A stretch of DNA of 64,000 nucleotides from an uncultured Lachnospiraceae bacterium (lineage in GTDB: Bacteria; Bacillota; Clostridia; Lachnospirales; Lachnospiraceae), in the NCBI GenBank assembly GCA_964449325.1, contig CAYUYJ010000013.1:9006-73005 (forward strand), given 5' to 3'. The translations under genes and the position numbers were made by a program. Numbering within the stretch: the stretch's first letter is position 1; the number at the start of each line of letters is the position of its first letter. This document shows positions 24,674 to 38,538 of the stretch, piece after piece. Below the pieces are notes generated by a model that was not told the DNA's origin, did no database searches, and saw only the letters and a program-made list of their open reading frames with translations.

Positions 24674-24826
24674 TCTATACCTCTTGTTTTTTCCTTCTAT
24701 GACAATATATGCAAAACACGAATGGTTGCTATTTCTCTTTTATCACCCGATAGATTTATTCAACAATTTTATCCACTAATGCTTCTATATGAATCTTCAT
24801 GGTGTCCAGACATGGTATCGGACAAT
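24673..24826. repeat. left direct repeat (DR-L) of the accessory island
   Basis: This 154-nt copy matches 38384-38538, with 5 substitutions and a T6/T7 length difference by my manual alignment. It corresponds to the racemase 3' end plus the racemase-amidase spacer. Confidence 0.9.
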
Positions 24827-26868
24827 GCATCCTTAATGGCAGTACGGGCTTCTGCAAGCTTTGTGCCCTTAGCCTCATTGTAGTTGCTGGCTATCAATGC
24901 GTTACTGGCATTCATTTCAGGCACAGTGCTTCCGGATGCTGTCTCACCAGCCGAAGCTGCAGCTTCAACTGTTGTTGTGGACATTTGATAAAAGGTATAG
25001 TTTGGAACTTCCTTGGTGTAGCAGTGATAGGTACGCTTGTAGTCATCCTCACAATAGCGGAACTGCATGTTAACAATGTACTGGTTACCACCCATAGAAA
25101 CAAATAAGTCTTCAGTGGTAGGAGTTCCCGCCATTGCTTCATACTTCTCGGCGTCAAGTCCTCCCTGTTTTATCTGAGCAAACGGGCCTTCGATAACTTG
25201 CTGGAAAGTATAAGTCTTTTTGTCGCCAGTAGAGTATACAATCCAGTGGCAGCTCTCATTAGTTAACGGAACAGACTGCCCTCCTGCTCTGACATTGACG
25301 TCCATAGCATAAGCAACGGAAAGCATACCGTTGTCATTAAGACTTGGTCCAAGCATATCTGTAGCTAGGTCGAAAGTTTTTGTCTCGTTCTCCAGTGCTT
25401 CAAAGAACTCCGCTTTGCTTAGCGTAATCTCCTGAGTAAAGCTACCTGTAGAATTGTGGATACCGTTTCCTGTACGAGTCTTTCCACTACTCTTTATTTT
25501 ATCTACATTTGTGGTAAAGCTGTTCTGTCCTAAGTGATAGGTTTTGATTTCCAGAGTCGCTGTGTCTGCTCCAAGACTATTGAACCAACTTTCCCATAGA
25601 GCATAGTTCTCCTGTGCAATGCACAATTCTCCCACGTCATTGGAATAGTCCGGTTTTTCACTGGTGTAAACAATCTGGTCTTCACAGTAACCTGCACTGT
25701 TAGGAATAGCATATTGAGCATTGATGTGCCAGTCAAAGTATCCGGTAGGAATCCCTGCGACTCCGGCTCCCCCAATAGTAACAATAGTACAACCATTGAT
25801 ACCTTTTTCTGAGCCGCCGGCAGATAGAGTCTGCCATGCTGTCTGTGCCCAGAGAGAACGTGTTCCGGAACTAGGCAAGAATTTGATTGTGCCGGGTTTC
25901 CATGTGGTAGCGAAGAATCGCTTTACCCAACGATAAGGCCATGTATCGTAGTCGTTTGTTCCGCTGTCATAGCCACAGAGACTGGCGATTGCCTTGTCCG
26001 TAAGTGAAGTGACTGTTCCGCCATAAGCATTCAAATCTGTTGTCAGAAGTGCTTCGTAAGCGGTCTGTCCGCCAATACGTAGACACATGTCAGATGGTGC
26101 TGCGAAGTAATTGGCACCATCGCCAACAACGACACCGCAGACTTCAATGACGATTACGACCGGGTGCGTGGAAGCGCTGCCGGAAGTAAGCTCGCTCTGC
26201 CACAGCTGGTAGAGCCCTTGATTGATTCCGTCAAGGGAAGCAAGTTCGGACATGAGGGCGTCGATGACGCCAGCCTCCGGCACAATGTAGAGGGAACCGT
26301 CGTCACGAGCAGCAACGTTGACTCCATCCGGAGTATTCGTGTATATGCATTGCAAAACCTTTTCAGCAGTAGAACCGGCAGGCGCGGTGACGCAGGCATG
26401 TCCACGGTAATCTTCGGTAGCAAGGGAAGTTCCGTGTCCATAAACGAATGAGGCTCCCTGCGTAGCAACATAGTATTTGGCACCGTATTGCTGAACAGCT
26501 AAGGCTTTGGAATCTATGTCGTTAGCGTAGACAACGTCTTCATTTGTGAGCTGTGCAAGTCCCATACGGAATACCAAGGCGTTGCTGCCATCACTGTCGG
26601 CGGCAGTGAATCCTGCCTTGGAGTTGGATTTATTCTTACCTCGTACGGAAGTATCATTGGCACCAGCTGTGGATGTGGAAGCATCAGCGGGGAGTGAGTC
26701 GGTTTCTTCGAGGAACGTAATATCGTTATTCATCTCTTCATTTTCTTGTTCTGCCTGTTTTTTACTCTCTTCCCAAGCTGGCTCTTGTCCTAAAGCATAA
26801 GCGGTAATACATGCTAAAACAAATATACAAGATAGTCCTATTGCGATTATTTTCTTTATATTCTTCAA
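24769..26868 (-). CDS. secreted protein of unknown function
   Basis: 699-aa ORF with a signal-peptide-like N-terminus (MKNIKKIIAIGLSCIFVLACITAYALG) and an acidic linker. I recognise no motif. The last 18 codons lie inside DR-L. Confidence 0.7.
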   Translation of the reverse strand: MKNIKKIIAIGLSCIFVLACITAYALGQEPAWEESKKQAEQENEEMNNDITFLEETDSLPADASTSTAGANDTSVRGKNKSNSKAGFTAADSDGSNALVFRMGLAQLTNEDVVYANDIDSKALAVQQYGAKYYVATQGASFVYGHGTSLATEDYRGHACVTAPAGSTAEKVLQCIYTNTPDGVNVAARDDGSLYIVPEAGVIDALMSELASLDGINQGLYQLWQSELTSGSASTHPVVIVIEVCGVVVGDGANYFAAPSDMCLRIGGQTAYEALLTTDLNAYGGTVTSLTDKAIASLCGYDSGTNDYDTWPYRWVKRFFATTWKPGTIKFLPSSGTRSLWAQTAWQTLSAGGSEKGINGCTIVTIGGAGVAGIPTGYFDWHINAQYAIPNSAGYCEDQIVYTSEKPDYSNDVGELCIAQENYALWESWFNSLGADTATLEIKTYHLGQNSFTTNVDKIKSSGKTRTGNGIHNSTGSFTQEITLSKAEFFEALENETKTFDLATDMLGPSLNDNGMLSVAYAMDVNVRAGGQSVPLTNESCHWIVYSTGDKKTYTFQQVIEGPFAQIKQGGLDAEKYEAMAGTPTTEDLFVSMGGNQYIVNMQFRYCEDDYKRTYHCYTKEVPNYTFYQMSTTTVEAAASAGETASGSTVPEMNASNALIASNYNEAKGTKLAEARTAIKDALSDTMSGHHEDSYRSISG

Positions 26869-26887
26869 TTTATTAGGCTCCTTTCGT

Positions 26888-26895
26888 TGAAAAAG
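26888..26895. repeat. IS66 target-site duplication, left copy (TGAAAAAG)
   Basis: The identical 8-mer abuts both IS ends. An 8-bp TSD is the IS66-family norm. Confidence 0.85.
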
Positions 26896-27037
26896 GTAAG
26901 CGCTTAAATTTTGCCCGGATAGAATAATCCTCAGAAATCTTTCATAATGGAGTTAGTGTTGTAGTCTTTTGCTACGACTCGAAACTCAAGTGTTCTGTAT
27001 GTTAGACACTTTTACTACGATTATGGAGGATTCTATT

Positions 27038-27457
27038 ATGGCAAGATTTCAAAGCCCTCGCCGTTCTGACGAAGAATGGTTCCAACTCATCAACGAATGC
27101 CGCAGAAGCGGCCTGTCAGATTCCTTATGGTGTAAGCAGCAGGCCATCCCTGTTTCTTCTTTTTTCTGTGCAGTGCGCAGATTACGGGAAAAGGCATATG
27201 CGCTCCCGGAGCGTGAACGTTCCATTGATATCGTTTCGAATCCGCTTCCTTGTCAGGATGTGGTACGAATTGATATAGAACCGAATCCTTTAACAGTAAA
27301 GGAACCGGAATCTTTGCAGGTAATTCCTGCAACGCACCTTGACAATTCACATACAGTTGAAATAGAAGTTCACGGGATGAACATTCGTATCTTTAATGGT
27401 GTTGACACAGGACTCCTTAAGACAGTCCTTTCTTCTTTGGGAGGTGCCGGATGCTAG
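27038..27457 (+). CDS. tnpA: IS66 accessory protein TnpA (orf1)
   Basis: 139-aa ORF from the ATG preceded by GGAGGA. It has the position and size of IS66 orf1, and its stop overlaps the tnpB start. Confidence 0.8.
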   Translation: MARFQSPRRSDEEWFQLINECRRSGLSDSLWCKQQAIPVSSFFCAVRRLREKAYALPERERSIDIVSNPLPCQDVVRIDIEPNPLTVKEPESLQVIPATHLDNSHTVEIEVHGMNIRIFNGVDTGLLKTVLSSLGGAGC

Positions 27458-27810
27458 GTGATATCTCAGGAGTAAGGGAAATCTACATTGTGACAGGGTA
27501 CACCGATATGAGAAAGTCTTTGGATGGATTATGTGCCATCATCGAAGAGCAGTTCTCTATGAGTGTGTCATCCAGTGCCCTTTATCTTTTTTGCGGGAAG
27601 AAATGTGACCGCATCAAGGCACTCCTTCGCGAGCCTGATGGAATGACTCTTTTGTATAAAAGGCTTTCCGTATCACAGGGAAGGTACCGTTGGCCCAGAA
27701 ACAAATCCGAGGTAAGAAACCTTACCTGGCAGGAGTTTGACTGGCTGATGTCCGGTCTTGATATCGATCAACCCAAGGCAATCAAAGTGGATTACAGTGC
27801 TGCTTCGTAG
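27451..27810 (+). CDS. tnpB: IS66 Orf2-like protein TnpB
   Basis: 119-aa ORF with characteristic IS66 Orf2 sequence (IYIVTGYTDMRKSLDGL..., LYLFCGKKCDRIK). Confidence 0.88.
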   Translation: MLGDISGVREIYIVTGYTDMRKSLDGLCAIIEEQFSMSVSSSALYLFCGKKCDRIKALLREPDGMTLLYKRLSVSQGRYRWPRNKSEVRNLTWQEFDWLMSGLDIDQPKAIKVDYSAAS

Positions 27811-27910
27811 TGTCGAAAAGTACGATGTTTTCGGCATTTTAGGCTATCAAAAATTACTCAAAAGTGGTATAATAAAGACAGTTAAAACCACCGTTTTGAG
27901 GAGAAAAAAA

Positions 27911-29551
27911 GTGGCCAGAAATTCTTTGGAATCCCGTCTCATGGAGCAGAGCGACATGATCATGCAACTGAATAAGACGATCCTTTCTCTGCAGCAGACC
28001 ATAGAGAGTTTCAATGCCAAAGAAGCTGCTATGCTGCAGGAGATACAAACCCTTAAGGAGCAGAATGACTATCTTACCAAGAAGCTCTTTGGGAAATCCA
28101 GCGAAAAGAATCCCTGGGATATGGAAGGTCAGCTCAATCTTTTCAATGAGGTCGAGCAGGAACAGAATACATCATTACTTGAAGAAGAACAGGAAGAAAC
28201 AAAAACCGTTACTTTCACGGTTAAAAAAGGCCGTTCTACCGACAAGGATCGTTATGCAGGTCTTCCTGTAGAAAAAAAGTATCTGGATGTTCCTGAAGAA
28301 GAACGCTTCTGTCCGGATTGTGAGTCACCGCTTTTAGAAATCGGCGAAACCTTCGTACGCAGGGAACTGAAGTTCAAACCTGCATCTTTTAAGGTGGTTG
28401 AGTATTACAGTAAGAACTACAAGTGCCCTAAATGTTCTCCGAACCTGAAAACACCTGTAATCGTACAGGGAAAGGATGGAAGGGCTCATATGCTCCACGG
28501 CATGGCCTCTGCTTCTACTGTTGCCTGGGTGATGTCCCAAAAGTATGTCAATGCGATGCCTCTTTACCGTATCGAAAGAGATTTTAAACAATACGGTGTA
28601 AATATCACCAGAGCAACACTTGCCAACTGGGTCATTCAGAATACAGACCGTTTTTTTTCACCCTTTTATAACTATCTGCATAAGCTGCTGCTAAAACGGG
28701 TCTTTATCATGGCAGATGAAACCGTTGTACAGGTGCTTCATGAAGAAGACCGCAGACCGGAAAGCAAGTCCTACATGTGGATTTTCCGAAGTGGCGAAGA
28801 TGGACAGGAGCCCATCATCCTCTATCAGTATTCTCCCACCAGAGCAGGAGAAACAGCCACGGATTTCCTGGATGATTTTTCAGGATATATCATGTGTGAC
28901 GGATACAGTGGTTACAATAAGCTAAAGAAAGCCAAACGAACCACCTGCTGGTCTCACGTCAGGAGATATCTTCTGGATGCCATCCCCAAAGGAAAAAAGA
29001 TGGACTACACACTGCCTGCTGTACAGGGGGCTATGTATGTAGACAAGCTTTTCCACTTGGAAAAGGAAATCAAAAAGAAGCACAAAAATGACTACGAATC
29101 CATAAAAGCAGCCCGCCTCGAGAAAGAAGTACCTGTTCTGGAGGGCTTTTGGTCGTGGTTTGAGAAACAGCATGCCGTAAAAGGATCCAGAATGGAGAAA
29201 GCCCTTACCTACATCCAAAACAGAAGGTCTGATATGATGACCTATCTGGAGGATGGGCGTTGCAGTTTCTGCAATAACCTAAGCGAAATCGAGGTAAAAC
29301 CCATTGCACTTGGAAGAAAGAATTATCTCTTCTCTGACACTACCGCAGGTGCGGATTCCAGTGCTGTCATTTATTCTCTGGTAGAAACTGCCAAAGCGAA
29401 TGGACTGAACATGTACCATTATCTCTGGTATCTGTTGGAAGAATTGCCCCAAACAGACTTATCAGAAGAAGCCTTTGAAAAGTATCTGCCCTGGAATCCG
29501 GAAGTAAAAACTGCCCTGGAAGAAAAAGCACAAAAACTTCTGGAAGATTAA
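27911..29551 (+). CDS. tnpC: IS66-family DDE transposase TnpC
   Basis: GTG start after GAGGAG. It has an N-terminal leucine-zipper-like helix, a CPDC..CPKC zinc-ribbon, and DDE-region strings MADETVVQV, CDGYSGY and CWSHVRR. Confidence 0.9.
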   Translation: MARNSLESRLMEQSDMIMQLNKTILSLQQTIESFNAKEAAMLQEIQTLKEQNDYLTKKLFGKSSEKNPWDMEGQLNLFNEVEQEQNTSLLEEEQEETKTVTFTVKKGRSTDKDRYAGLPVEKKYLDVPEEERFCPDCESPLLEIGETFVRRELKFKPASFKVVEYYSKNYKCPKCSPNLKTPVIVQGKDGRAHMLHGMASASTVAWVMSQKYVNAMPLYRIERDFKQYGVNITRATLANWVIQNTDRFFSPFYNYLHKLLLKRVFIMADETVVQVLHEEDRRPESKSYMWIFRSGEDGQEPIILYQYSPTRAGETATDFLDDFSGYIMCDGYSGYNKLKKAKRTTCWSHVRRYLLDAIPKGKKMDYTLPAVQGAMYVDKLFHLEKEIKKKHKNDYESIKAARLEKEVPVLEGFWSWFEKQHAVKGSRMEKALTYIQNRRSDMMTYLEDGRCSFCNNLSEIEVKPIALGRKNYLFSDTTAGADSSAVIYSLVETAKANGLNMYHYLWYLLEELPQTDLSEEAFEKYLPWNPEVKTALEEKAQKLLED

Positions 29552-29688
29552 TTTCAAATGTATGTGAATTGTCAAGGTGCCTTGGCCATAGAAATATGGC
29601 CGGGTATTTTTATTTTAAAGAACCGGAAGGTTCATCAAAATCAGAAAATAGTGCTAAGTAGACAAACGGCTAAATTTTAAGCGCTTAC

Positions 29689-29696
29689 TGAAAAAG
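29689..29696. repeat. IS66 target-site duplication, right copy (TGAAAAAG)
   Basis: Identical to 26888-26895. Confidence 0.85.
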
Positions 29697-29723
29697 AGCC
29701 CTCGTATTGAAGACTCTTTATTA

Positions 29724-30590
29724 TTAATATCTTATATAATTTTCAGGTATTTCAGATAATTCTGTATTGTTTACGTTTGTAAGTTCATACTCTAAGTGTA
29801 CTGTACATGTGAGTTCGTCAGTAGAATATCGAACGGTTTGAATTGATATGTATTCACCAGGCGTATCTAAGTACAAATAAATATCAAATGTTAATGAGCC
29901 ATTCTCCGGCTTTAAGGTATCTGCATCAGCATATAAAAACTGAAGAAAAGTTTCTTCTGTATAATCAAGCAAGTTTTCTACATGTAGAGCTGGACGTCCA
30001 TTATACTCTGATACAGAGGATTTTTGAACAACGATAGCGATATCTTCGTCTGTTATTGAAAATAAATCAAAGAATTTTGCATAAGCTAATCGCTTGGTTT
30101 CAGTACCCTCTTTAAAACTTTTCCAATTGACATTAGCAGAATCGATGTAGTTTGTTGCATAAGTACCGTCCTCAAGGAAATAGTGTTTAGCATATGTGTC
30201 GTCTACTAAGTCTTCTTTATCAGCAGTATTCTGCTTTTCTTCCTCTAGGATGTTCCCATCTTCATCTACACTAATCCATGTATCCTCCCAGGTATGGTCG
30301 TCCATAGGATTTCCTTCTGAGTCTGTTCGGTCGGTATAATAGCGTGCTTTCCTGAAAGTATAGGAGTCATAGTCCATATCCCTTACCTGCTCCAAGAAAG
30401 CAACGATTTCTTCCTCTGTCATAGAGAGGGTTTCCTCTTCCTCCGCTGTAGATTCTTCCTCAATCGTAGATTCCTCGATGATAGTCTCTTCCACTGCTAC
30501 AGTAGACTCGGGAACTTCTTCCTCTGCGGTTTTCTCACAAGCTGTGAGGGTTAATGTTAATAATGTTACTAATAATAAATTTTTCTTCAT
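29724..30590 (-). CDS. lipoprotein of unknown function
   Basis: Start taken at MKKNLLLVTLLTLTLTAC (lipobox LTAC). A Glu-rich linker is followed by a ~200-aa domain with no motif I recognise. Confidence 0.7.
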   Translation of the reverse strand: MKKNLLLVTLLTLTLTACEKTAEEEVPESTVAVEETIIEESTIEEESTAEEEETLSMTEEEIVAFLEQVRDMDYDSYTFRKARYYTDRTDSEGNPMDDHTWEDTWISVDEDGNILEEEKQNTADKEDLVDDTYAKHYFLEDGTYATNYIDSANVNWKSFKEGTETKRLAYAKFFDLFSITDEDIAIVVQKSSVSEYNGRPALHVENLLDYTEETFLQFLYADADTLKPENGSLTFDIYLYLDTPGEYISIQTVRYSTDELTCTVHLEYELTNVNNTELSEIPENYIRY

Positions 30591-30728
30591 AATGATTATC
30601 TCCATTTCCCGGTGCAATCCAGAACTGCACCGATTTATTGTTCTATTGATATATGTAATAAAACGGATAATTCCGTTGGGTTTTCATAGGTAGAATTGAG
30701 GGAGTCGTGGGACTCTCTCGTGTTTGGT

Positions 30729-31019
30729 TTATTCTGCTATGTAGGCACCAAATCCGCCACAATTCATAAGAAAAGACATTTGCAATGATTGGAGCTCTTC
30801 CTTGGTCGGATTCTTGTTAGGCAGGTCTATTATTCCATCTACAAGTATCCGGAAGTAAAGCTGTAAAGCTTCTTTTCGAGTAGGTGTGATATCATAGCTG
30901 TCAAGGAACCCTTCAATGTTATTCCAGTCTACATTGTCAGGGTTCTCCGAAAAATACGTCGCTACATCATCAATAATGCGAATAAAGCCTTCAACACCAT
31001 GTCCATTAATTTTCTCCAT
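30729..31019 (-). CDS. hypothetical protein
   Basis: 96-aa ORF from the second ATG (MEKINGHG...), which is preceded by GAGGT. No recognisable motif. Confidence 0.5.
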   Translation of the reverse strand: MEKINGHGVEGFIRIIDDVATYFSENPDNVDWNNIEGFLDSYDITPTRKEALQLYFRILVDGIIDLPNKNPTKEELQSLQMSFLMNCGGFGAYIAE

Positions 31020-31651
31020 ATCATGTACCTCCATATTAAAGTTTTATTGTACTTTAATATAGCGGATGATTGTTTATTCTTGCGGAGTTGAGTTGACACC
31101 CAATCTAAATGATTGACCCTAAATCCTCCATAGAGTTGATTTCTTTTTTCAATTAGCTGCTTTTCTCCTATTAAGCGCTTCATGCAAGTTATTCCTGCTT
31201 TACGGGATTCTGAGCCACCATTAGAATCACAATAGGCTGTGAGCACTATTGGACGAATATTGTATTCAAATATTGCAGTAGCAGTTGTCAATACACAGCA
31301 GTCTGTATCAGCACCTACAATAAAAACATGTTTTGGAAATTCGCCGTCGTTTAACTGACACAATCTTTGGATAAAACTAGAATTGACACAATTATAAATA
31401 TACTTGTCCTCTGTATAGTCCATAGATTTCAACAACCCATCTGGAATAGATCTTTCTTGCTCTGTTTTAAGTCTTGACCAATTAAACATTTTCTCGTACA
31501 TGCTATTATCAGAATTCAAAAAGCGTGTTCCAATAACTACATCAAAAATCTTTGAATCTAGTAATTTTTCAATTTTTTTTTGATAACTCGATAGTATGTT
31601 TGTATCTTGTAAAACCGTTCTGCATATCAACTACAATTAATATGTTTTTCA
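30962..31651 (-). pseudogene. isochorismatase/cysteine-hydrolase family gene, frameshifted in an A9 run
   Basis: The ATG at 31651 gives MKNILIVVDMQNGFTRYKHTIELSKKN*, the typical family N-terminus, and stops at 31568. The long ORF continues in another frame with GADTDCCVLTTA (catalytic-Cys motif). Removing one A from the run at 31572-31580 joins the two frames. Confidence 0.75.
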
Positions 31652-31707
31652 TAAGGAACCCTTTCCTCATTTATTTAAATAATCTACTACCACTGCGCCT
31701 ATTGCTA

Positions 31708-31842
31708 TTACAAGTGTGGTAATAAGAAGTCTGCATCATCTGGGAATCTTCCCAAAGCCGTATCACGCGATTTTAGAAATCTTGCTTTCGCTGTACTAAA
31801 ATTAATAATAGGAATAGTTTCACTTTTAGCTTTGTCTGTCAT
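31708..31842 (-). CDS. small hypothetical protein (44 aa)
   Basis: Hand-translated as MTDKAKSETIPIINFSTAKARFLKSRDTALGRFPDDADFLLPHL. A strong SD (AAGAGGTG) lies 7 nt upstream. It sits just upstream of the hydrolase pseudogene. Confidence 0.4.
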   Translation of the reverse strand: MTDKAKSETIPIINFSTAKARFLKSRDTALGRFPDDADFLLPHL

Positions 31843-31898
31843 AATATTCACCTCTTAGTTTGTTACATTGTATTTAGTAACAAATTATGGTACACTAA

Positions 31899-31928
31899 CC
31901 TCATCAACTGATGTAGCAGTTGATGAGG
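31899..31928 (-). other. perfect 12-bp hairpin downstream of the DUF262 gene
   Basis: CCTCATCAACTG-N6-CAGTTGATGAGG, about 95 nt after the DUF262 stop. No clean U-tract follows, so a terminator role is uncertain. Confidence 0.45.
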
Positions 31929-32021
31929 CACCGAGCAGCTTGTAACAGTTCAAGCAAATTTTGCTCAGAAAGGAGTACATATGTGCACTCAATTCGATTA
32001 CTAGGAGGTACCAAATGGGAA

Positions 32022-33779
32022 TTACACGCGTACTGTTTCATTAGAGTGGCGGACATATTTTACCCCGTTGTAAAAACATGTTTCACCTATATTTTTGCTT
32101 TTAAATACAAGCAATTCTGTATCGTGGTAATCAAAAGGCTCGAAAGTCTCCAGAATGTACTCTTTAAGCTTTTCTGAAATAGGTTCGGTGTCTAGAAGCT
32201 TCCGTATGCGTCTGTAGTAAGAATCAGTACTGCCACATAATTTCTCAGCTTCTTTTGTTATACCCGGTATATAATGCTGGTTATTAATTAAAGCCTGCTC
32301 TTTGTAAGTACTGTACCAGCTATCATAGGCTTCTTTTGAATCAGCAACACCTAAAACAACTAATCCCTCCTCTTTGGCGCTAGTGGTGTTCGCCATTGCG
32401 ACAAGGGTTTTTGCTATATCGTGAATTACATTCATGTTGACAGATGTAGAAGAAAAATCAGATATACCGACTTTAAATTCTGTCATCTGCCTTTCAATTT
32501 TGGAGTAACCTAATCGTTTGTCTATTTCATCCTGTAGTTCACTATGTTTCTTTGCAATCTGCTTAACAAACGCCGGACGAAGTAGTTTATAGACTATATC
32601 TATTGTTTTGCTTACTTGAGCGTAATCAATCCGGGAGCTTTTTGTAAAAGCATCAAAACTGCCTGCTGCATCTTTTATTGCATTAGCTACCTCTTGATAA
32701 TTCGAAATTACAAACCCTTCTTCCAGCAGTCTGTACACTGCTATAAAAAGAACTTTAAAACATTCGTCTTTATTGCTTACGCGCCGGCTGCTAAATAGAA
32801 AAGATGAAAAATCAGAATTTACTGAGTCGAAAACCATATCTATTGTATCAAAGGTTTTCCTGAATTTGTTTTCCAGATTATCTTTGCCAAGTTCTGAAAT
32901 CCGATTCTCAATCTGGTTGTTCAGGATGGTACCTTTTTCGTACAGCTGGTCTAAACGGTCTTTACTCTTCTTAAAGTCTTTCAATAGAATCATAGCAAAT
33001 AAAGTCTCTATGATTTCTTCATCTTTAGACTCTTTGATATTCTGCGGGTCGATAAGATCATGCCTTCTCCAGAAGACTGCATCCAAGTCAACTCCATAAC
33101 CATACTGTTTATAGCCGACACTAATTTTAGGTATATCGCATAAGCAAATATGGTCATCGTAAGTATGGTCTAAGCGCACATCACTTGCTACGCGTCTAAC
33201 CAAATCAGGAAACTCTCCGACTGCCTTAGACTGTCTCAAATCATGTGAGGAGATTTGTCTTCCAGTTGAATTTATCCTACTGAATATCATATCCACAGTA
33301 GCATTATCCTTACCTGTTATTATAGCAGGAATCTGATATCTGCAGAATTCAATGCACAATTCTTTCGGCAGCAGTCTATCATGCTTCTTTAACTGCTTGT
33401 CCTGATTCATGAGCAGTTGAAATGTTTCATTATTAGCATTAGGGTCAAAGTAACAGTTTTCGTTGTTGTATTCAATTGAGAACTCTCCCAATACAAACGA
33501 GATAATAGCATTGAGTCGCTGCATTCCGTCGACTATCTCGAGAATGTTTCTTTTATTCTCAGAAGGAACATCATATTTAACCAAAAGAATTGCAGGCAAG
33601 GGTATTTCTCTAATCATGGAATCGATAAGGAGTCTTTTTTCATCGATTCCCCATACTAACTTTCTCTGGTATCTACGGTTAACATAAAACAGATTCTGTA
33701 CGTAATTAGCTATTATGTCATTTACAGTATATTTTTCTACAGTTAATGTGTTGCTCATAGTACGGTCACTCCAATTCAT
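32022..33779 (-). CDS. DUF262 (ParB/Srx-like NTPase) - AlbA_2/Schlafen-like fusion protein, defence-type
   Basis: Start taken at MNWSDRT (GGAGG SD 7 nt upstream), giving 585 aa. The N-terminus has DUF262 strings (RRYQRKLVW..., EIVDGMQRLNAI, the DGQQR-type motif). The C-terminal ~150 aa has the AlbA_2 pattern (MTEFKVGI..., IAKTLVAMANT, GLVVLGVAD, KYVRHSNETV). I see no DUF1524 His-Me nuclease motif. Confidence 0.8.
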   Translation of the reverse strand: MNWSDRTMSNTLTVEKYTVNDIIANYVQNLFYVNRRYQRKLVWGIDEKRLLIDSMIREIPLPAILLVKYDVPSENKRNILEIVDGMQRLNAIISFVLGEFSIEYNNENCYFDPNANNETFQLLMNQDKQLKKHDRLLPKELCIEFCRYQIPAIITGKDNATVDMIFSRINSTGRQISSHDLRQSKAVGEFPDLVRRVASDVRLDHTYDDHICLCDIPKISVGYKQYGYGVDLDAVFWRRHDLIDPQNIKESKDEEIIETLFAMILLKDFKKSKDRLDQLYEKGTILNNQIENRISELGKDNLENKFRKTFDTIDMVFDSVNSDFSSFLFSSRRVSNKDECFKVLFIAVYRLLEEGFVISNYQEVANAIKDAAGSFDAFTKSSRIDYAQVSKTIDIVYKLLRPAFVKQIAKKHSELQDEIDKRLGYSKIERQMTEFKVGISDFSSTSVNMNVIHDIAKTLVAMANTTSAKEEGLVVLGVADSKEAYDSWYSTYKEQALINNQHYIPGITKEAEKLCGSTDSYYRRIRKLLDTEPISEKLKEYILETFEPFDYHDTELLVFKSKNIGETCFYNGVKYVRHSNETVRV

Positions 33780-33791
33780 AATGATACCTCC

Positions 33792-33819
33792 ATTATAGCT
33801 TAATATATTATTTTGTAAA
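33792..33819 (-). promoter_or_regulatory. putative sigma-A promoter of the DUF262 gene
   Basis: The minus strand reads TTTACA-N16-TATAAT, and the -10 element ends 1 nt before the GGAGG SD. The region is AT-rich, so a chance match is possible. Confidence 0.35.
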
Positions 33820-33925
33820 TATAATGTTTTCCGTAGACATTGTCTCTGAATTAAAGAGAGTCGCTGCACACGTAGCATAAAAGTATTTACATATTGAGCA
33901 CATACTACTTTGTGTCGAACAAGCT

Positions 33926-33950
33926 GGGTACTAGTAACTTACTAGTACCC
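33926..33950. other. 25-nt near-perfect palindrome (12-bp arms)
   Basis: GGGTACTAGTAA-C-TTACTAGTACCC, followed on the plus strand by TTTCGCTTTAT. Confidence 0.6.
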
Positions 33951-34045
33951 TTTCGCTTTATAATTAATAGCGACAATTGAGACGCTACTGCTGACTTCTC
34001 AGCATAAATAAATTTGTAAAGGGGTACTTTTACCCTTCTTGCGGT

Positions 34046-34099
34046 GCTTATGCCAGGCATTACAGCTTTGGCTGTAATTGCAACGATTGTTGTGAAATG
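34046..34099. repeat. island repeat copy 1 (~55-nt element)
   Basis: GCTTATGCCAGGCATTACAGCTTTGGCTGTAATTGCAACGATTGTTGTGAAATG. It contains a perfect 8-bp dyad ATTACAGC/GCTGTAAT and the CAACGATTGTTG palindrome. Confidence 0.8.
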
Positions 34100-34164
34100 T
34101 GCCTGTTTTTAAAATTAAAATAAGCAATGCCATAGCCAGTGGATTTTCTTATTATGAGGCGCTT

Positions 34165-34219
34165 GATTATGTGTTGGTGTTACAGCTTTAGCTATAATTG
34201 CAACAATTGTTGTGAAATG
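34165..34219. repeat. island repeat copy 2
   Basis: GATTATGTGTTGGTGTTACAGCTTTAGCTATAATTGCAACAATTGTTGTGAAATG, 119 nt after copy 1. Confidence 0.8.
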
Positions 34220-34285
34220 CATACAAACTAAAAGGGGAAGGAATTCGTAGGGTATGCGCATGCCCAATGAATAGCCCTTCTGTTT

Positions 34286-34324
34286 GATTATGCGTTGGTA
34301 TTACAGCCTTAGCTATACAATGTT
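34286..34324. repeat. island repeat copy 3 (truncated/diverged)
   Basis: GATTATGCGTTGGTATTACAGCCTTAGCTATACAATGTT, 121 nt after copy 2. Confidence 0.7.
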
Positions 34325-34478
34325 ATCTACGGGAGCTTGCACTCCCATCATAGATACAGGAGGCAGATAGGGACAGCCCTCTTACTCATTGTCGAAGAAT
34401 ACAATAGAAACTTCTTAATACCTGTGACATAAACACTGCAAGAAAGATAAAAGATATTTTAGTAATACAGCATAGCTT

Positions 34479-34506
34479 GGATACCTATGCGAGCACATAG
34501 GTATCC
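34479..34506. other. perfect 11-bp stem hairpin
   Basis: GGATACCTATG-CGAGCA-CATAGGTATCC within the ORF-poor region. Confidence 0.6.
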
Positions 34507-34586
34507 AACTTGAATCCGCTGCTCTGTAAAAGAACTCAATACAATAAGATTTACAGTGCGGAACGCTGCAACTACATTTTAAAGGG

Positions 34587-34615
34587 GCTGGTAAGTTACC
34601 AGCTCTTTCCTTTTT
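34587..34615 (+). terminator. intrinsic-terminator-like hairpin plus T-tract (plus strand; possibly bidirectional)
   Basis: GCTGGTA-AGT-TACCAGC followed by TCTTTCCTTTTT on the plus strand. On the minus strand it lies 60 nt after the stop of the hexapeptide-repeat gene, with only a weak U-tract. Confidence 0.5.
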
Positions 34616-34662
34616 AGAGAATGACATATTACAAAACCTTTTCAAAAATTTGTCATCGGTAA

Positions 34663-35166
34663 TTAGGACAAAAGTGCTTTAAGTGCTGTGTTTACAGCCT
34701 CTTTGAACGCTTCATCGTCCAGTTCATTAATGCATGTAGGCATATAAAGAGCTGCATTGCTGACTAATTCAGTAATGTACGTAACGAATCGGTCGTCAGA
34801 CGTTATACTCAGCAGAGTCGCAGCGTTGTCTAAGTTGAGCTCACCAGAATTCTGAGTAGGCGCACTCTGTCCCAATAGTTTGGCTAGGTCACTATCTGTA
34901 CTTATATCAACACTGCCGTCAACTATAATATTTTCGCCAATATGCACATTACCATGCACTTTAGCATTTCCATGGACGATAGCAAATCCATGAACATGTG
35001 CACTTCCATAAACATGTGCGACTCCATAAACCTGAGCCTTTCCATAAATCTCAGCATCTCCAGAGACGCAAGCAAATCCACAGACATACGCATTCTCAGA
35101 AACCCGGGCATTCTTGGCAATATTCTGTACAGAATCTGCAGTTGATGAAGTGTATTTTATAATCAT
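34663..35166 (-). CDS. hexapeptide-repeat (left-handed beta-helix) protein with His/Tyr ladder
   Basis: Eleven consecutive 6-residue repeats: NARVSE NAYVCG FACVSG DAEIYG KAQVYG VAHVYG SAHVHG FAIVHG NAKVHG NVHIGE NIIVDG. A helical C-terminal ~70 aa follows. The start is uncertain (ATG 35166 or 35190, neither with a good SD). The upstream part of the tracked 248-aa ORF is judged spurious. Confidence 0.55.
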   Translation of the reverse strand: MIIKYTSSTADSVQNIAKNARVSENAYVCGFACVSGDAEIYGKAQVYGVAHVYGSAHVHGFAIVHGNAKVHGNVHIGENIIVDGSVDISTDSDLAKLLGQSAPTQNSGELNLDNAATLLSITSDDRFVTYITELVSNAALYMPTCINELDDEAFKEAVNTALKALLS

Positions 35167-35188
35167 TAACAAAGAAAGGAGGAAAAGC

Positions 35189-35485
35189 ATGGATAGTATT
35201 TCCAAGGACAAAAGTGAGCTTAAAGTAATTGCCACAGGGATTTTCGTGATTTTGTATCTTTGCACTGTAATAACAGCTGCCGATAAGCTACCCCTAGCTA
35301 TTGGCATTGCACTCTCGTTTACGAATATTATTAGTGCATCAATACTTTGCTGGATTGTAAGTATTACGTTTAAGCATTTACAAAATTTGTGGATATACCA
35401 ATTATCCAAACGCGTGTACTATGCAGCATTGTTGTTCTCAATGGCATTTGTTCCGTTTACTGTATCTCTTAATATTGGTAATTGA
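35189..35485 (+). CDS. small three-TM membrane protein
   Basis: 98-aa ORF (MDSISKDKSELK then three hydrophobic helices) with a strong AAAGGAGG SD 5 nt upstream. It is antisense to the 5' extension of the beta-helix ORF. Confidence 0.55.
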   Translation: MDSISKDKSELKVIATGIFVILYLCTVITAADKLPLAIGIALSFTNIISASILCWIVSITFKHLQNLWIYQLSKRVYYAALLFSMAFVPFTVSLNIGN

Positions 35486-35692
35486 TACGACACTGAACAG
35501 CTTATTTCAATTATCATTTCCTAGGCACATCTAATCTGGTTAGGTGTGTGTCTTTGTGCTTTCACGCTTATTTTTCATTTGATTTAATTAAGACTTTATT
35601 ACTCCAATTATATATGTACTATATGCCCAAAATTTGGCGTTCCTTTACGACTTAAATAGGGAAGACCATAAGCCTTCCCTGTAATCTTTGTC

Positions 35693-36070
35693 TTATCTTT
35701 TCCGTTGCTCCAACGTAGGCCGGAGCACATTGATGTCCCTGAAATACTCTAAATCCTCTCCCTCAAACCGTATCCACAAATCATCGCGATTCGTATGCCC
35801 GTGAGTGCATTTCACAATGTCGAAAGGATTATACTGAGTCAATCCCATAGACGCAAGGATTTCCTCTTTATCTGGTCTTCCTTCCTCAAAACATCTGTCT
35901 CTGAATTTATTCAAGACTGACTGTATTGTTTTTGGACGTCTGCCAAGAAACTTATAAGGTATCTCATCAGTAAACTCTTGGCAAGTAACCTCTTTGGTTT
36001 CTCTGTTTACCTCAACATGAGCCACTACAGTATTGATAAGCATCCAATCAAATATTAGCATCTTTTCCAT
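35693..36070 (-). CDS. HipA-kinase-associated small protein (possible detached HipA N-terminal-like module or antitoxin)
   Basis: 125-aa ORF whose start overlaps the HipA-like gene end by 16 nt, suggesting translational coupling. No HTH motif is evident. Confidence 0.6.
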   Translation of the reverse strand: MEKMLIFDWMLINTVVAHVEVNRETKEVTCQEFTDEIPYKFLGRRPKTIQSVLNKFRDRCFEEGRPDKEEILASMGLTQYNPFDIVKCTHGHTNRDDLWIRFEGEDLEYFRDINVLRPTLEQRKR

Positions 36071-36828
36071 GCAATACCCTCCGTTTCTGACAACGCTCTT
36101 AGAACTGTCTTTAGAGCACGTACACTCATTCTGTCACTGAAGTTCACGCTGTTGACAAAATCATCATAGTGCAACTCCAATAACCTATTGTTTACCAGAT
36201 TACGTGGGAAGTCTGTGTAAAATGGTTTTGCTGATATACTGCGGTAGTTCGTGTCAAAGTCTACCTCTAGCGGATATGAAAGCACATCCGACATGCAAGC
36301 TGCTCCATTATCAAAAATAGGAGCGGGTGAGTATTTGCCATCGGAGTAGAGGAAAGAAATATTTTTAAAATGTCGGTCATCATTTCTGGTCATAGCATCG
36401 ACACAGAGTATTGTGTCGATATAACTTTTTACATCAAATCCAACAATGCCAAATAAATAATCTCTCAAGTCATCATAGGAAATGGAATAGGATTGCAAGC
36501 CTTCATCCAGCAAATTCGCTACTGTCATTTCCACAGCATCTCCGACAAAATCTTGAGAATAACAACCAGAGCCAATCCTTTTTCCGTCCTCGTATATTAG
36601 GCACGCGCGGTACTTCACATAATCTTTCTCTGATAAGTCTGTAAAACTCAATAGGTGAGAGACGAGCACTTCTGCAGTATTCTCGTACCCTAAGCAATTC
36701 AATTTCACAAATTTATCGTTATGTTTCCATTTTATCTGATTGCCTAATGAGCTACTGAAGGCATCTAATCGCTCAGAACTTTTAACATGTATGATAGGTA
36801 AAGCATTAATACTAATATCTTCTAACAT
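36055..36828 (-). CDS. HipA-like Ser/Thr kinase core (short form)
   Basis: 257-aa ORF with a GxQxK-type loop (SLGNQIKWK), a HipA_C catalytic-loop-like TRNDDRHFKNISFL, and an APIFDNGAA Mg-binding-like motif. It lacks the ~150-aa N-terminal domain of canonical HipA. Confidence 0.75.
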   Translation of the reverse strand: MLEDISINALPIIHVKSSERLDAFSSSLGNQIKWKHNDKFVKLNCLGYENTAEVLVSHLLSFTDLSEKDYVKYRACLIYEDGKRIGSGCYSQDFVGDAVEMTVANLLDEGLQSYSISYDDLRDYLFGIVGFDVKSYIDTILCVDAMTRNDDRHFKNISFLYSDGKYSPAPIFDNGAACMSDVLSYPLEVDFDTNYRSISAKPFYTDFPRNLVNNRLLELHYDDFVNSVNFSDRMSVRALKTVLRALSETEGIAWKRC

Positions 36829-37122
36829 GTAACAATCTCCTTTCAGTTACCCAAATAATATTTTGGTCTGTCGCTTCAACAAGCATATCCTCGAAATCAA
36901 AATATAAAGCCGGCTTATCCTCTAACATAATGTATGTAGGCATTCACTCTCTGTATGGGTATTCACTGCAGTGCACGTAGTAACTTTTCTCTTTGGAGTC
37001 TCAGACAGCATAAACTCTAAACAAGTCAGCCAATCATTATCTTCACCGAATTCACTCTCAATAACGCCAAAACCATAGAGCTATTTTAGAACAATAGCCT
37101 CTTACATCTTTAAATTTCAACG

Positions 37123-37917
37123 TCATACTTCTACCTCTTTCCTTGCAAGCTGAATAGCCGGGTATATGTCTTCTACGTCCATAGAACCATAACAACTAGG
37201 CAGTAAAGACAAGAACTTTTCTTTCTGCTCAGCTGTATAGTCCCTAGTAATATGCTCTATATACACTTCTGTTTGAGATGTAGTAACTTCTTGAGCCACA
37301 AGCAGAACACAGTACTTCTGCATAAAGGAAATAAGTGCTGTGTCATCTGCTGTCTCATAGTAACGTACCAACAGCGTTTTGAACTCTCCAATACGTTCAA
37401 TAGGAACTTGGAATATGCCGATGTTGTTCTGTATTAGCACCTTATTAGCTATAAGCTGTGCAACTCTTTTATTGCCGTCAATAAACATTTGAGTACGTGC
37501 TACATAGCAGAAATACTTCAAGGCACGCAACGTAATGTCCGGAATCTGCTCGATAGCATTTAAAGCATCCAGAATGATTCCGGTATTGGGTATCTCAGGT
37601 TCCCATGTAGTACCACCAATTCTTACCGGTAGCGTTCTGATTGCACCTGCATCATGAAATAGCATGGCACCAACAATCTTATTGTATTCGCGCAATAGCA
37701 TAAGGCTATTGTCGTAGTCGATATTATCCAAAAGAAACTGCCATGCACGTTTCATGTTAATGATAAAGAGCACTTCTTCACTTGTAGTTGTGGTAGGTAC
37801 ATTAAGCAGTATCTCCTCTGTCTTAGGAAATGTTGTTCCAAGTCCCTCTAAGTTAGCACTCTTCCAGATACTATCGACTAAAAGTCTTTTTGCCATTGCA
37901 ATTGCTGAGTCTTTCAT
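37123..37917 (-). CDS. Fic/Doc-family protein with degenerate active-site motif
   Basis: 264-aa ORF from the ATG after GAGGTG. It has an N-terminal inhibitory-helix-like SANLEG ([S/T]xxxE[G/N]). The Fic core reads QMFIDGNKRVAQ instead of HxFx[D/E]GNGRxxR, with Gln (CAA, 37489-37491) in place of the catalytic His. Confidence 0.75.
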   Translation of the reverse strand: MKDSAIAMAKRLLVDSIWKSANLEGLGTTFPKTEEILLNVPTTTTSEEVLFIINMKRAWQFLLDNIDYDNSLMLLREYNKIVGAMLFHDAGAIRTLPVRIGGTTWEPEIPNTGIILDALNAIEQIPDITLRALKYFCYVARTQMFIDGNKRVAQLIANKVLIQNNIGIFQVPIERIGEFKTLLVRYYETADDTALISFMQKYCVLLVAQEVTTSQTEVYIEHITRDYTAEQKEKFLSLLPSCYGSMDVEDIYPAIQLARKEVEV

Positions 37918-38130
37918 AATGTACACCTCACATTCCTAATCGAATACATTTTAACAGAATTCTCTAATAGAGTAAAGACAGCGATTTTCACTAGAGAGTA
38001 GCGTCTACCTCCTCAAGCTTACTTTGCATACAAAAAGCAATAGTCTATGTCCGGAATCCAGTTGTCCTTAATTAGATAATCGACGACCTTTTTGATTTTC
38101 AATCTTCTCACCTTCTTTCTACATCCATTA

Positions 38131-38173
38131 CCCCAAAAAAGGTAAAAAAATAGCCCCTACTTTCGTAAGGGCT
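38131..38173 (-). terminator. intrinsic terminator just inside the island right end
   Basis: The minus strand reads AGCCCTTAC-GAAA-GTAGGGGCT followed by ATTTTTTTACCTTTTTTGGGG. It would stop read-through from the racemase gene into the island. Confidence 0.65.
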
Positions 38174-38383
38174 TGCCGATGAATCGCCAGATTCACCATA
38201 ACTGAATCAATTTTTACCGGTCAGTCGCCAGACCAACCATATCTGTATGCTTATCGTACATCGATATTATATGAAAAGTCAAATATTTTATGAACTATTC
38301 CTACATGCTATAACAACATATATTCACACAGGATTCCACAAAAACTATTGATGGATTGGCAGCTTGCATCCTGCAATCTTCCT

Positions 38384-38538
38384 TTCTATACCTCTTGTTT
38401 TTTTCCTTCTATGACAATATATGCAAAACACGAATGGTTGATATTCCTCTTTTATCACCCGATAGATTTATTCAACAATCCTATCCACTAATGCTTCTAT
38501 ATGAATCTTCATGGTATCCAGACATGGTATCGGACAAT
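38384..38538. repeat. right direct repeat (DR-R) of the accessory island
   Basis: This 155-nt copy contains the last 71 nt of the racemase ORF plus 84 nt downstream. Confidence 0.9.

Follow-up and report, generated by a model that had tools for sequence, protein, structure and literature searches.

A minimal HipA-like kinase overlapped by the gene of a lid-like partner protein in an uncultured Lachnospiraceae bacterium

Introduction

What is the role of a small protein whose gene overlaps the end of a gene for a HipA-like kinase that lacks the N-terminal domain of its relatives? In textbooks, HipA-type kinases connect toxin-antitoxin modules with translation arrest and antibiotic persistence. 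The question is raised by a 64,000-nucleotide stretch of DNA from an uncultured Lachnospiraceae bacterium (assembly GCA_964449325.1, contig CAYUYJ010000013.1, positions 9,006 to 73,005; hereafter the window), in which a kinase of 257 amino acids and a partner of 125 amino acids are encoded side by side. Taking the evidence together, we consider it fairly probable that the two genes form a bicistronic module of the HipA superfamily with coupled translation, in which the partner acts as an antitoxin that silences the kinase. A toxin-antitoxin or a phage-defence pair would be the most likely function of the module.

Layout of the two-gene locus

The kinase gene comes first and the partner gene lies downstream. 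The features of the locus are as follows:

36055-36828, minus strand: kinase gene, open reading frame (ORF) of 257 amino acids; core Ser/Thr kinase of the HipA/HipT/CtkA fold without the N-terminal lid domain
35693-36070, minus strand: partner gene, ORF of 125 amino acids; stand-alone lid protein, homologous to the N-terminal domain of full-length HipA-like kinases and HipS-like in fold; putative antitoxin or regulatory subunit
36055-36082, minus strand: translational-coupling junction with the Shine-Dalgarno (SD) sequence GGAGGG, the partner ATG and the 16-nucleotide overlap up to the kinase TAA
36829-36842, minus strand: ribosome-binding region of the kinase gene, with AAGGAG at 36837-36842, 8 nucleotides before the kinase ATG

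The overlap of 16 nucleotides, which had already been noticed in a preliminary description of the locus, spans positions 36055-36070 and runs up to the kinase stop codon TAA at 36055-36057. The SD sequence of the partner is located at 36077-36082, 6 nucleotides 5' of the partner start codon, and is encoded by Glu-Gly codons near the end of the kinase gene. The partner ATG (36068-36070) is embedded in Ala-Trp codons of the kinase (GCA TGG in the window). Judged by these signals, the junction is arranged as in the textbook case of translational coupling. The same overlap recurs in the related loci L001, L002, L003, L005, L009, L010, L011 and L013, which include unrelated assemblies. Moreover, an alignment of the kinase with 22 homologues (47-93% identity) revealed that W254 is invariant and follows Ala or Ser in all rows. 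From the common 16-nucleotide overlap, we infer that the overlapping ATG of the relatives sits in the same codons.

The preliminary description had also stated that no HipB-type gene is adjacent. Indeed, a scan of 14 flanking ORFs in the region from 32.0 to 38.6 kb gave no helix-turn-helix (HTH) match, and no hidden HTH or HipB gene was found among these ORFs.

The kinase

The label "HipA-like" had been given to the 257-amino-acid ORF because of catalytic strings of the HipA_C type, and the absence of an N-terminal domain had been noted as well; both points hold. The strings LGNQIKWK, RNDDRHFKNISFL and PIFDNGAA are all present. They belong to a protein with the Gly-rich loop S25-S26-S27-L-G29-N-Q-I-K33-W34, the catalytic loop D151-R-H-F-K-N156 and the Mg-binding residue D173. 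Across the 22 homologues, no variation occurs at G29, K33, W34, K42, D151, R152, H153, N156 or D173. Conservation reaches at least 90% at N30 and Q31 and likewise at S27, which belongs to the Ser run S25-S27 in front of the Gly-rich loop, a candidate site of autophosphorylation.

The kinase scores below the curated cut-off of Pfam HipA_C (27.9 bits against 30.5), with a match restricted to residues 117-177, and NCBIfam yields only a trace of YjjJ (E 0.016). The PADLOC models PDC-M03A match at E 2e-7. When the profile of 22 sequences was compared with the PDB, Legionella HipT was reached at E 0.11; the aligned stretch corresponds exactly to the catalytic loop, which aligns with that of HipT(Lp), and to the Mg-binding loop.

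The AlphaFold2 (AF2) model of the kinase has a predicted local distance difference test score (pLDDT) of 94.3 and is uncertain only at residues 24-28, the Ser-rich stretch before the Gly-rich loop. A Foldseek search of the PDB with this model placed chains of Helicobacter pylori CtkA in the top seven positions (E 3e-8, template modelling (TM) score about 0.6), followed by HipT of Legionella and E. coli (7wcf, 8ezr, 7ab3) and by HipA of Shewanella and E. coli (4pu3, 3dnv). All of these matches have a probability of 1.00, with E-values from 3e-8 to 1e-3. On the basis of motifs and model, the kinase is a minimal, catalytically complete member of the HipA/CtkA fold without the N-terminal lid. It is very divergent in sequence, yet the label "HipA-like" is right.

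Like the window kinase, CtkA (3akk, 3akl) is a compact HipA-related Ser/Thr kinase. The identity between the two sequences is about 16%, and the PDB title calls CtkA a proinflammatory kinase. CtkA has been reported to be a cell-translocating Ser/Thr kinase that acts on host cells. Because CtkA chains occupy the first seven Foldseek ranks, one could imagine that the window kinase is an exported effector as well and that the partner serves as its chaperone or immunity protein. We regard this as very improbable, since no secretion genes are adjacent among the ORFs scanned with Pfam, the other structural and sequence relatives of the kinase family are toxin-antitoxin kinases and relatives of the partner carry DNA-binding domains that are typical of cytoplasmic antitoxins.

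The partner protein

No Pfam or NCBIfam family was found for the partner, and PHROGs gave a marginal match to phrog_8026 only. PADLOC PDC-M03B is weakly matched, at about positions 66-118 of profiles that comprise 232-250 positions. In all, 892 representative clusters at 50% identity match the partner.

The preliminary description had tentatively suggested a likeness between the partner and the N-terminus of some full-length HipA-like proteins, and this suggestion turned out to be correct. In HipA_C proteins of about 370 amino acids, the first 140 residues are aligned to the partner family with an HHalign probability of 98% (E 2.2e-13, 113 columns). The profile of the fused family represents the subset of 355-400 amino acids among 120 listed proteins annotated as HipA_C and/or PI3_PI4_kinase; the family comprises no fewer than 190 clusters at 90% identity. 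The kinase part of the same family matches the 257-amino-acid kinase (HHalign probability 81%, E 1e-5). By these profile alignments, the proteins of about 370 amino acids (P0189-P0308) are full-length fusions of lid and kinase in HipA order. Lid and kinase form one chain in these kinases from gut Bacillota and two chains in the window pair. We consider the homology to these fused kinases, as judged from sequence profiles, to be the strongest line of evidence for the identity of the partner. Furthermore, P0131, found on one contig only, is a direct fusion of 376 amino acids in which the partner domain and a kinase of the same type as that of the window are joined.

The N-terminal domain of the family of about 370 amino acids is missed by the Pfam family Couple_hipA and is homologous to the window partner. 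At two loci of such kinases, genes of the IS605 OrfB type are found close by, and no obvious antitoxin is present.

The fold of the partner points in the same direction as its sequence homology. It had been suggested that the 125-amino-acid protein be compared with the N-terminal subdomain of HipA and with HipS, and the AF2 model (pLDDT 92.6) retrieved precisely these proteins: the seven best of 350,542 PDB chains were HipA (4pu4, 4pu3, 3dnv, 4pu5) or HipS (7ab3_E, 7ab3_B), although the E-values were weak (0.14-1.7). The TM scores are 0.45-0.56 over about 109 columns. HipS is covered essentially over its full length, and the HipA chains are presumably matched through their N-terminal part. Finally, the partner profile was compared specifically with the HipN-like N-terminal domain encoded at locus L102. 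This one comparison gave a match with E 2e-6 in hmmsearch and, over 94 columns, with P 1.7e-4 in hhalign.

Linkage and gene order in related loci

In a scan of one genome per species, 169 related loci were detected and the best 80 retained; the kinase tree has 84 rows. Most loci derive from Lachnospiraceae and other Clostridia, and a few from Erysipelotrichaceae, Muribaculaceae, Treponema and Paenibacillus. The partner domain adjoins the kinase in 81 of the 84 rows, so that the two are neighbours well beyond the window. The following arrangements were observed:

10 rows: short partner downstream of the kinase, usually with the same 16-nucleotide overlap (the window included)
71 rows: partner domain directly upstream, with its end at the start of the kinase
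1 row: independent flip with a long partner (L059)

The ten kinase-first loci form one clade with a support of 100/100. Neither gene order stands out as ancestral, since the tree lacks resolution at its base and the HipI-like (hipIN-like) outgroup also has the kinase first.

In 51 of the 71 rows with an upstream partner, the partner ORF extends at least 60 amino acids N-terminal to the domain; the ORFs were called from the first start codon, and some of these extensions may therefore be overcalled. Ten extended partners were compared with Pfam. HTH_3 was detected in three of them (up to 50 bits) and a MazE/AbrB-type domain in one. Three others gave weak resolvase-type (HTH_7) or other HTH matches, all just below the cut-off. 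The remaining three had no DNA-binding match, and their N-termini resemble coiled coils.

In the sister clades (L014-L088), the lid constitutes the C-terminal half of proteins of 180-250 amino acids that are encoded just upstream of the kinase and are, in effect, "HipB-HipS fusions". Examples of such upstream proteins with a DNA-binding domain and a lid are encoded in L038 (3385-3963), L040 (3436-4008), L023 (3417-3971) and L015 (3271-4014). In the literature searched, no description of DNA-binding-domain-lid fusions upstream of a kinase was found. Another subtype of the partner, represented in L014 (3292-3987), L054 (3195-3953) and L059 (4717-5415), has a coiled-coil-like N-terminus of about 120 amino acids with the conserved motif KxYYYxQWR and without a Pfam match. 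In L059, this long partner is encoded downstream of the kinase.

The canonical architecture of type II antitoxins is a DNA-binding domain followed by a toxin-binding domain. By analogy, the HTH-lid and MazE-lid architecture of the sister clades is the best argument for the lid being a neutralising partner.

Comparison with known systems

The preliminary description had proposed that the locus could be a permuted split of HipA with the kinase first. The split itself is supported, as the window encodes a HipA-type core and a separate N-subdomain downstream of it. The order is not new, because hipJS and hipIN have already been described (PMC8262856), and hence the layout of kinase first and lid second was known and does not represent a new permutation. 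In that survey, hipJS consists of a short kinase followed by a HipS-only protein and accounts for 2 of 1,239 modules, and the HipJ kinases have 279-321 amino acids (Gerdes, Baerentsen and Brodersen 2021, mBio; PMC8262856). The window pair resembles hipJS, as described there, in that a kinase without N-subdomain 1 comes first, a stand-alone HipS-type protein follows and a DNA-binding antitoxin is lacking. It differs in that the window kinase has 257 amino acids, lies below the HipA_C cut-off and shows an E-value of only about 0.1 to HipT in the PDB, and the partner is missed by Couple_hipA. In the survey, the sequences were gathered at stringent E-values from HipA, HipT and YjjJ seeds (PMC8262856). 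Since the window kinase reaches HipT only at about E 0.1, it is doubtful that it belongs to the HipJ subclade of main clade XI.

The second kinase-first type, hipIN, comprises a short Hip kinase followed by a HipS-HIRAN protein and is represented by 14 modules in the survey (PMC8262856). As in hipIN and PADLOC PDC-M03, the kinase comes first in the window, and the HipS-like N-terminal domain of the downstream protein of those systems is detectably related to the window partner. Unlike HipN and PDC-M03B, which carry a C-terminal HIRAN domain, the window partner has no HIRAN, and the PADLOC models are matched weakly and only in part. At the genuine PDC-M03 locus L102 (G106:C8), a HipA_C kinase (38 bits) precedes a PDC-M03B protein, and Couple_hipA is the best Pfam match of the N-terminal half of the latter (E 0.12). 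The C-terminal half of the PDC-M03B profile corresponds to HIRAN, as a protein matching that half scores 50.7 bits. Thus, with a HipS-like N-terminal half and a C-terminal HIRAN half, PDC-M03 appears to correspond to the hipIN type; no statement of this equivalence was found in the literature searched.

The window pair also shares features with HipBST of E. coli O127 and Legionella, in which the kinase lacks N-subdomain 1 and a lid homologue of about 100 amino acids is encoded separately. The models of both window proteins match HipBST structures (7ab3, 8ezr). However, HipBST consists of three genes in the order hipB (HTH), hipS and hipT, whereas the window contains two genes with the lid downstream and without an HTH gene, and the HipBST sequences are not significantly similar to the window pair. 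Like type II toxin-antitoxin modules in general, the pair is made up of two adjacent, co-oriented and overlapping small genes that are patchily distributed and located on accessory DNA. Unlike in such modules, a DNA-binding, autoregulating antitoxin domain is absent from the window's clade; it is present in fused form in the sister clades. For hipJ, HipS-like, CtkA-antitoxin and PDC-M03, the literature searched yielded only the 2021 survey by Gerdes and co-workers and the structural papers on HipBST.

Antitoxin or obligate subunit

HipA and HipT target aminoacyl-tRNA synthetases. In the proposed antitoxin mechanism, for which physical interaction, inhibition, toxicity, target and trigger are all inferred, the 125-amino-acid partner would dock on the N-lobe of the kinase beside the Gly-rich loop and keep the kinase inactive in a HipS-like manner. 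Coupled translation would supply both proteins together. As the SD sequence and the ATG of the second gene lie inside the end of the first, translational coupling would determine the stoichiometry. The antitoxin is not expected to autoregulate, because the partner of this clade, unlike those of the sister clades, has no DNA-binding domain. If the partner were lost or titrated, for instance upon loss of the element or phage infection, the kinase would be freed and could phosphorylate an essential target, which would lead to growth arrest. As an outcome, the island that carries the pair would be stabilised or a phage infection would be aborted.

Several observations weigh against an inhibitory partner of the HipS kind. 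The lid of HipA is an integral part of the active kinase and no inhibitor. Thus, homology to this lid does not by itself predict inhibition. Moreover, neither the partner nor any of its 150 relatives was matched by Couple_hipA (PF13657), and partner profiles built from 19 and from 150 sequences found nothing relevant among the PDB sequences. An hhalign comparison of the partner family with 12 Couple_hipA sequences from Clostridia genomes was not significant (P 0.056), and the same was true for the N-terminal domain of the fused family (P 0.32). The link to the canonical HipS and HipA lids therefore rests on fold and on architecture and context, not on sequence, and the E-values of the structural matches are weak, as given above. 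Neither a DNA-binding domain nor an evident labile tail is present in the partner. It has 21 invariant positions and is 64-73% identical in most of the clade, as compared with 53-60% for the kinase. In comparison with the closest relative locus, L005, the protein identity is 99.2% for the partner and 93.4% for the kinase. The corresponding ratios of non-synonymous to synonymous substitution rates (dN/dS) are 0.023 and 0.128, so that both genes are under purifying selection. The slower evolution of the partner reverses the pattern that is usual for type II antitoxins and toxins. Finally, the only RNA detected consists of two short metatranscriptome contigs, both located inside the partner gene, and these carry no information on co-transcription.

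Part of this evidence would fit an obligate two-chain kinase, in which the partner is a structural lid that completes the kinase in trans and any regulator would be a phage factor or be encoded elsewhere. A homologue of the partner is built covalently into full-length kinases that are presumably active, the domain is fused in cis in hundreds of relatives, purifying selection acts more strongly on the partner than on the kinase, and neither a DNA-binding domain nor another hallmark of an antitoxin occurs in the window's clade. Translational coupling would favour assembly in a ratio of 1:1. However, free-standing HipS is the antitoxin of HipBST (PMC8262856, PMC10627512), where it takes the position of N-subdomain 1 on HipT and blocks the kinase, with Trp65 of HipS wedged into the pocket that the ejected Gly-rich loop forms (PMC10627512). 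Likewise, in the sister clades the domain is joined to HTH_3 or MazE-type domains and is encoded in front of the kinase, as is known from type II antitoxins. We therefore regard the obligate two-chain kinase as a serious alternative that is clearly less probable than silencing of the kinase by the partner.

A broader reading, which we consider somewhat less probable still, combines two ideas. According to the first, the lineage may form a natural series of relations between lid and kinase, in which the lid is fused in cis (the proteins of about 370 amino acids and P0131), free and upstream with an HTH_3, MazE-type or resolvase-type domain, or free and downstream without a DNA-binding domain. 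According to the second, the window partner, with its unusually high conservation, would be an obligate or sensor subunit that activates the kinase and does not exert transcriptional autoregulation. The kinase may then be switched on by a phage or by loss of the element, and the pair may be a two-protein abortive-infection kinase.

The upstream region and its deletion scar

The preliminary description had found only broken ORFs in the roughly 290 nucleotides upstream of the kinase gene. This is indeed the case, and the fragments turned out to be the scar of a deletion of about 1.06 kb relative to L005. Two features describe the region:

36812-36943, minus strand: remnant ORF of 43 amino acids; scar of the deletion of about 1.06 kb, with about 25 first codons of a gene for a protein of 383 amino acids; overlaps the kinase start
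36944-37122, minus strand: probable promoter region of the operon, intergenic between a Fic gene and the remnant ORF; positions 36965-36944 are common to the upstream region of L005

L005 is 93.7% identical to the window over 1,726 nucleotides and contains a gene for a protein of 383 amino acids (L005 4826-5977) directly upstream of the kinase gene. By blastn, window positions 36965-36867 correspond to L005 4798-4896 and window positions 36868-35145 to L005 5960-7664. The first segment covers the region just 5' of the 383-amino-acid gene as well as its first approximately 70 nucleotides. The match resumes at 36868, which in L005 is 17 nucleotides before the stop of this gene, and the junction thus lies at about 36867/36868. 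These breakpoints indicate that a deletion of about 1.06 kb removed the 383-amino-acid gene and left the ORF of 43 amino acids. In agreement, a tblastn search of the window with the 383-amino-acid protein recovered its first 32 residues only. The protein has a partner-like N-terminal domain (hhalign probability 94%) as well as PI3_PI4_kinase and HipA_C matches. According to these matches, the lost protein is a full-length HipA-like fusion of lid and kinase. The idea that the 43-amino-acid ORF is a conserved leader or a third gene was rejected, because the upstream genes vary among the loci and the ORF is a deletion scar.

The deletion raises the possibility that the pair is decaying cargo, that is, the leftover of a three-gene unit of 383-amino-acid kinase, core kinase and lid that depended on the deleted gene for its function and is now non-functional or neutral; the island also holds an ORF-poor stretch and an ORF of the isochorismatase family. 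We consider this improbable. The pair occurs without the 383-amino-acid gene in L001, L003, L006 and L009-L013, and the fused kinases also occur without the pair, which argues that the pair is an independent unit. Both ORFs are intact, with dN/dS values far below 1. Moreover, the deletion keeps the upstream region and brings it close to the kinase start.

Within the probable promoter region, two sigma-70-like matches are located on the minus strand (37120-37091 and 37061-37033); the match count of this region, like the counts of the promoter and terminator scans in general, was no better than in shuffled sequences. The sole hairpin below the stop codon of the partner gene (35525-35549) is oriented for the neighbour on the plus strand.

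The accessory island

The pair is part of an accessory island, which is listed here together with two neighbouring genes:

24687-38538, no strand assigned: accessory island of about 13.8 kb, bounded by direct repeats; carries the kinase-partner module
37123-37926, minus strand: gene of the Fic/Doc family, 267 amino acids; Pfam Fic 25 bits, PADLOC PDC-S04, phrog_11900 E 9e-30; island context
32022-33878, minus strand: defence-type gene with GmrSD_N (DUF262) and Schlafen AlbA_2 domains according to Pfam; PADLOC NsnA E 2e-26; island context

The direct repeats of 140 nucleotides at 24687-24826 and 38399-38538 are 96% identical. An IS66 transposase is encoded in the island at 27758-29551, and no integrase was found among the island ORFs scanned. 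The G+C content lies between 0.34 and 0.39 at 31-38 kb; beyond 39 kb it rises to 0.41-0.43, apart from a value of 0.39 at 42-43 kb. The Fic/Doc protein has the motif QMFIDGNKR, in which Gln replaces the catalytic His. A Fic gene also adjoins a HipA_C gene in L001. Moreover, a homologue of the GmrSD-Schlafen protein with 60% identity is encoded 5 kb from the pair in L001 (11917-12786), which is an unrelated contig from the human gut. This suggests that the GmrSD-Schlafen gene and the pair belong to a recurrent set of defence-island genes.

Mobile cargo with the pair often holds further HipA_C genes, as at L001 7588-8897 and L108 1-1050. The examples are a gene for 350 amino acids that follows an ORF of 85 amino acids and a gene for 280 amino acids that is overlapped by an ORF of 185 amino acids. 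Thus, several HipA-like modules cluster together in such cargo. In the bacterial family of the host, the partner family was detected in 35 of 201 sampled genomes, which represent 200 genera, and it is absent from one genome of the same genus.

Significance of the lineage

The lineage itself, in which both proteins lie below the curated Pfam and NCBIfam cut-offs and which is abundant in gut Bacillota, appears to be undescribed. The upstream fusions of DNA-binding domain and lid as well as the cis fusions of the lineage were not found in the literature searched. Because neither partner nor kinase passes a curated cut-off, such modules may stay unlabelled by annotation that relies on those libraries. 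The lineage is large and has no functional name in the sources searched, and it is present in about one in six of the sampled Lachnospiraceae genera. At stake is the question of how the N-terminal lid of HipA-type kinases turned into a free antitoxin such as HipS. Here, the same lid is found fused to the kinase, upstream of it together with DNA-binding domains, and downstream of it alone. These arrangements would provide a matched set of natural constructs with which to ask when the kinase is activated by the lid and when it is inhibited.

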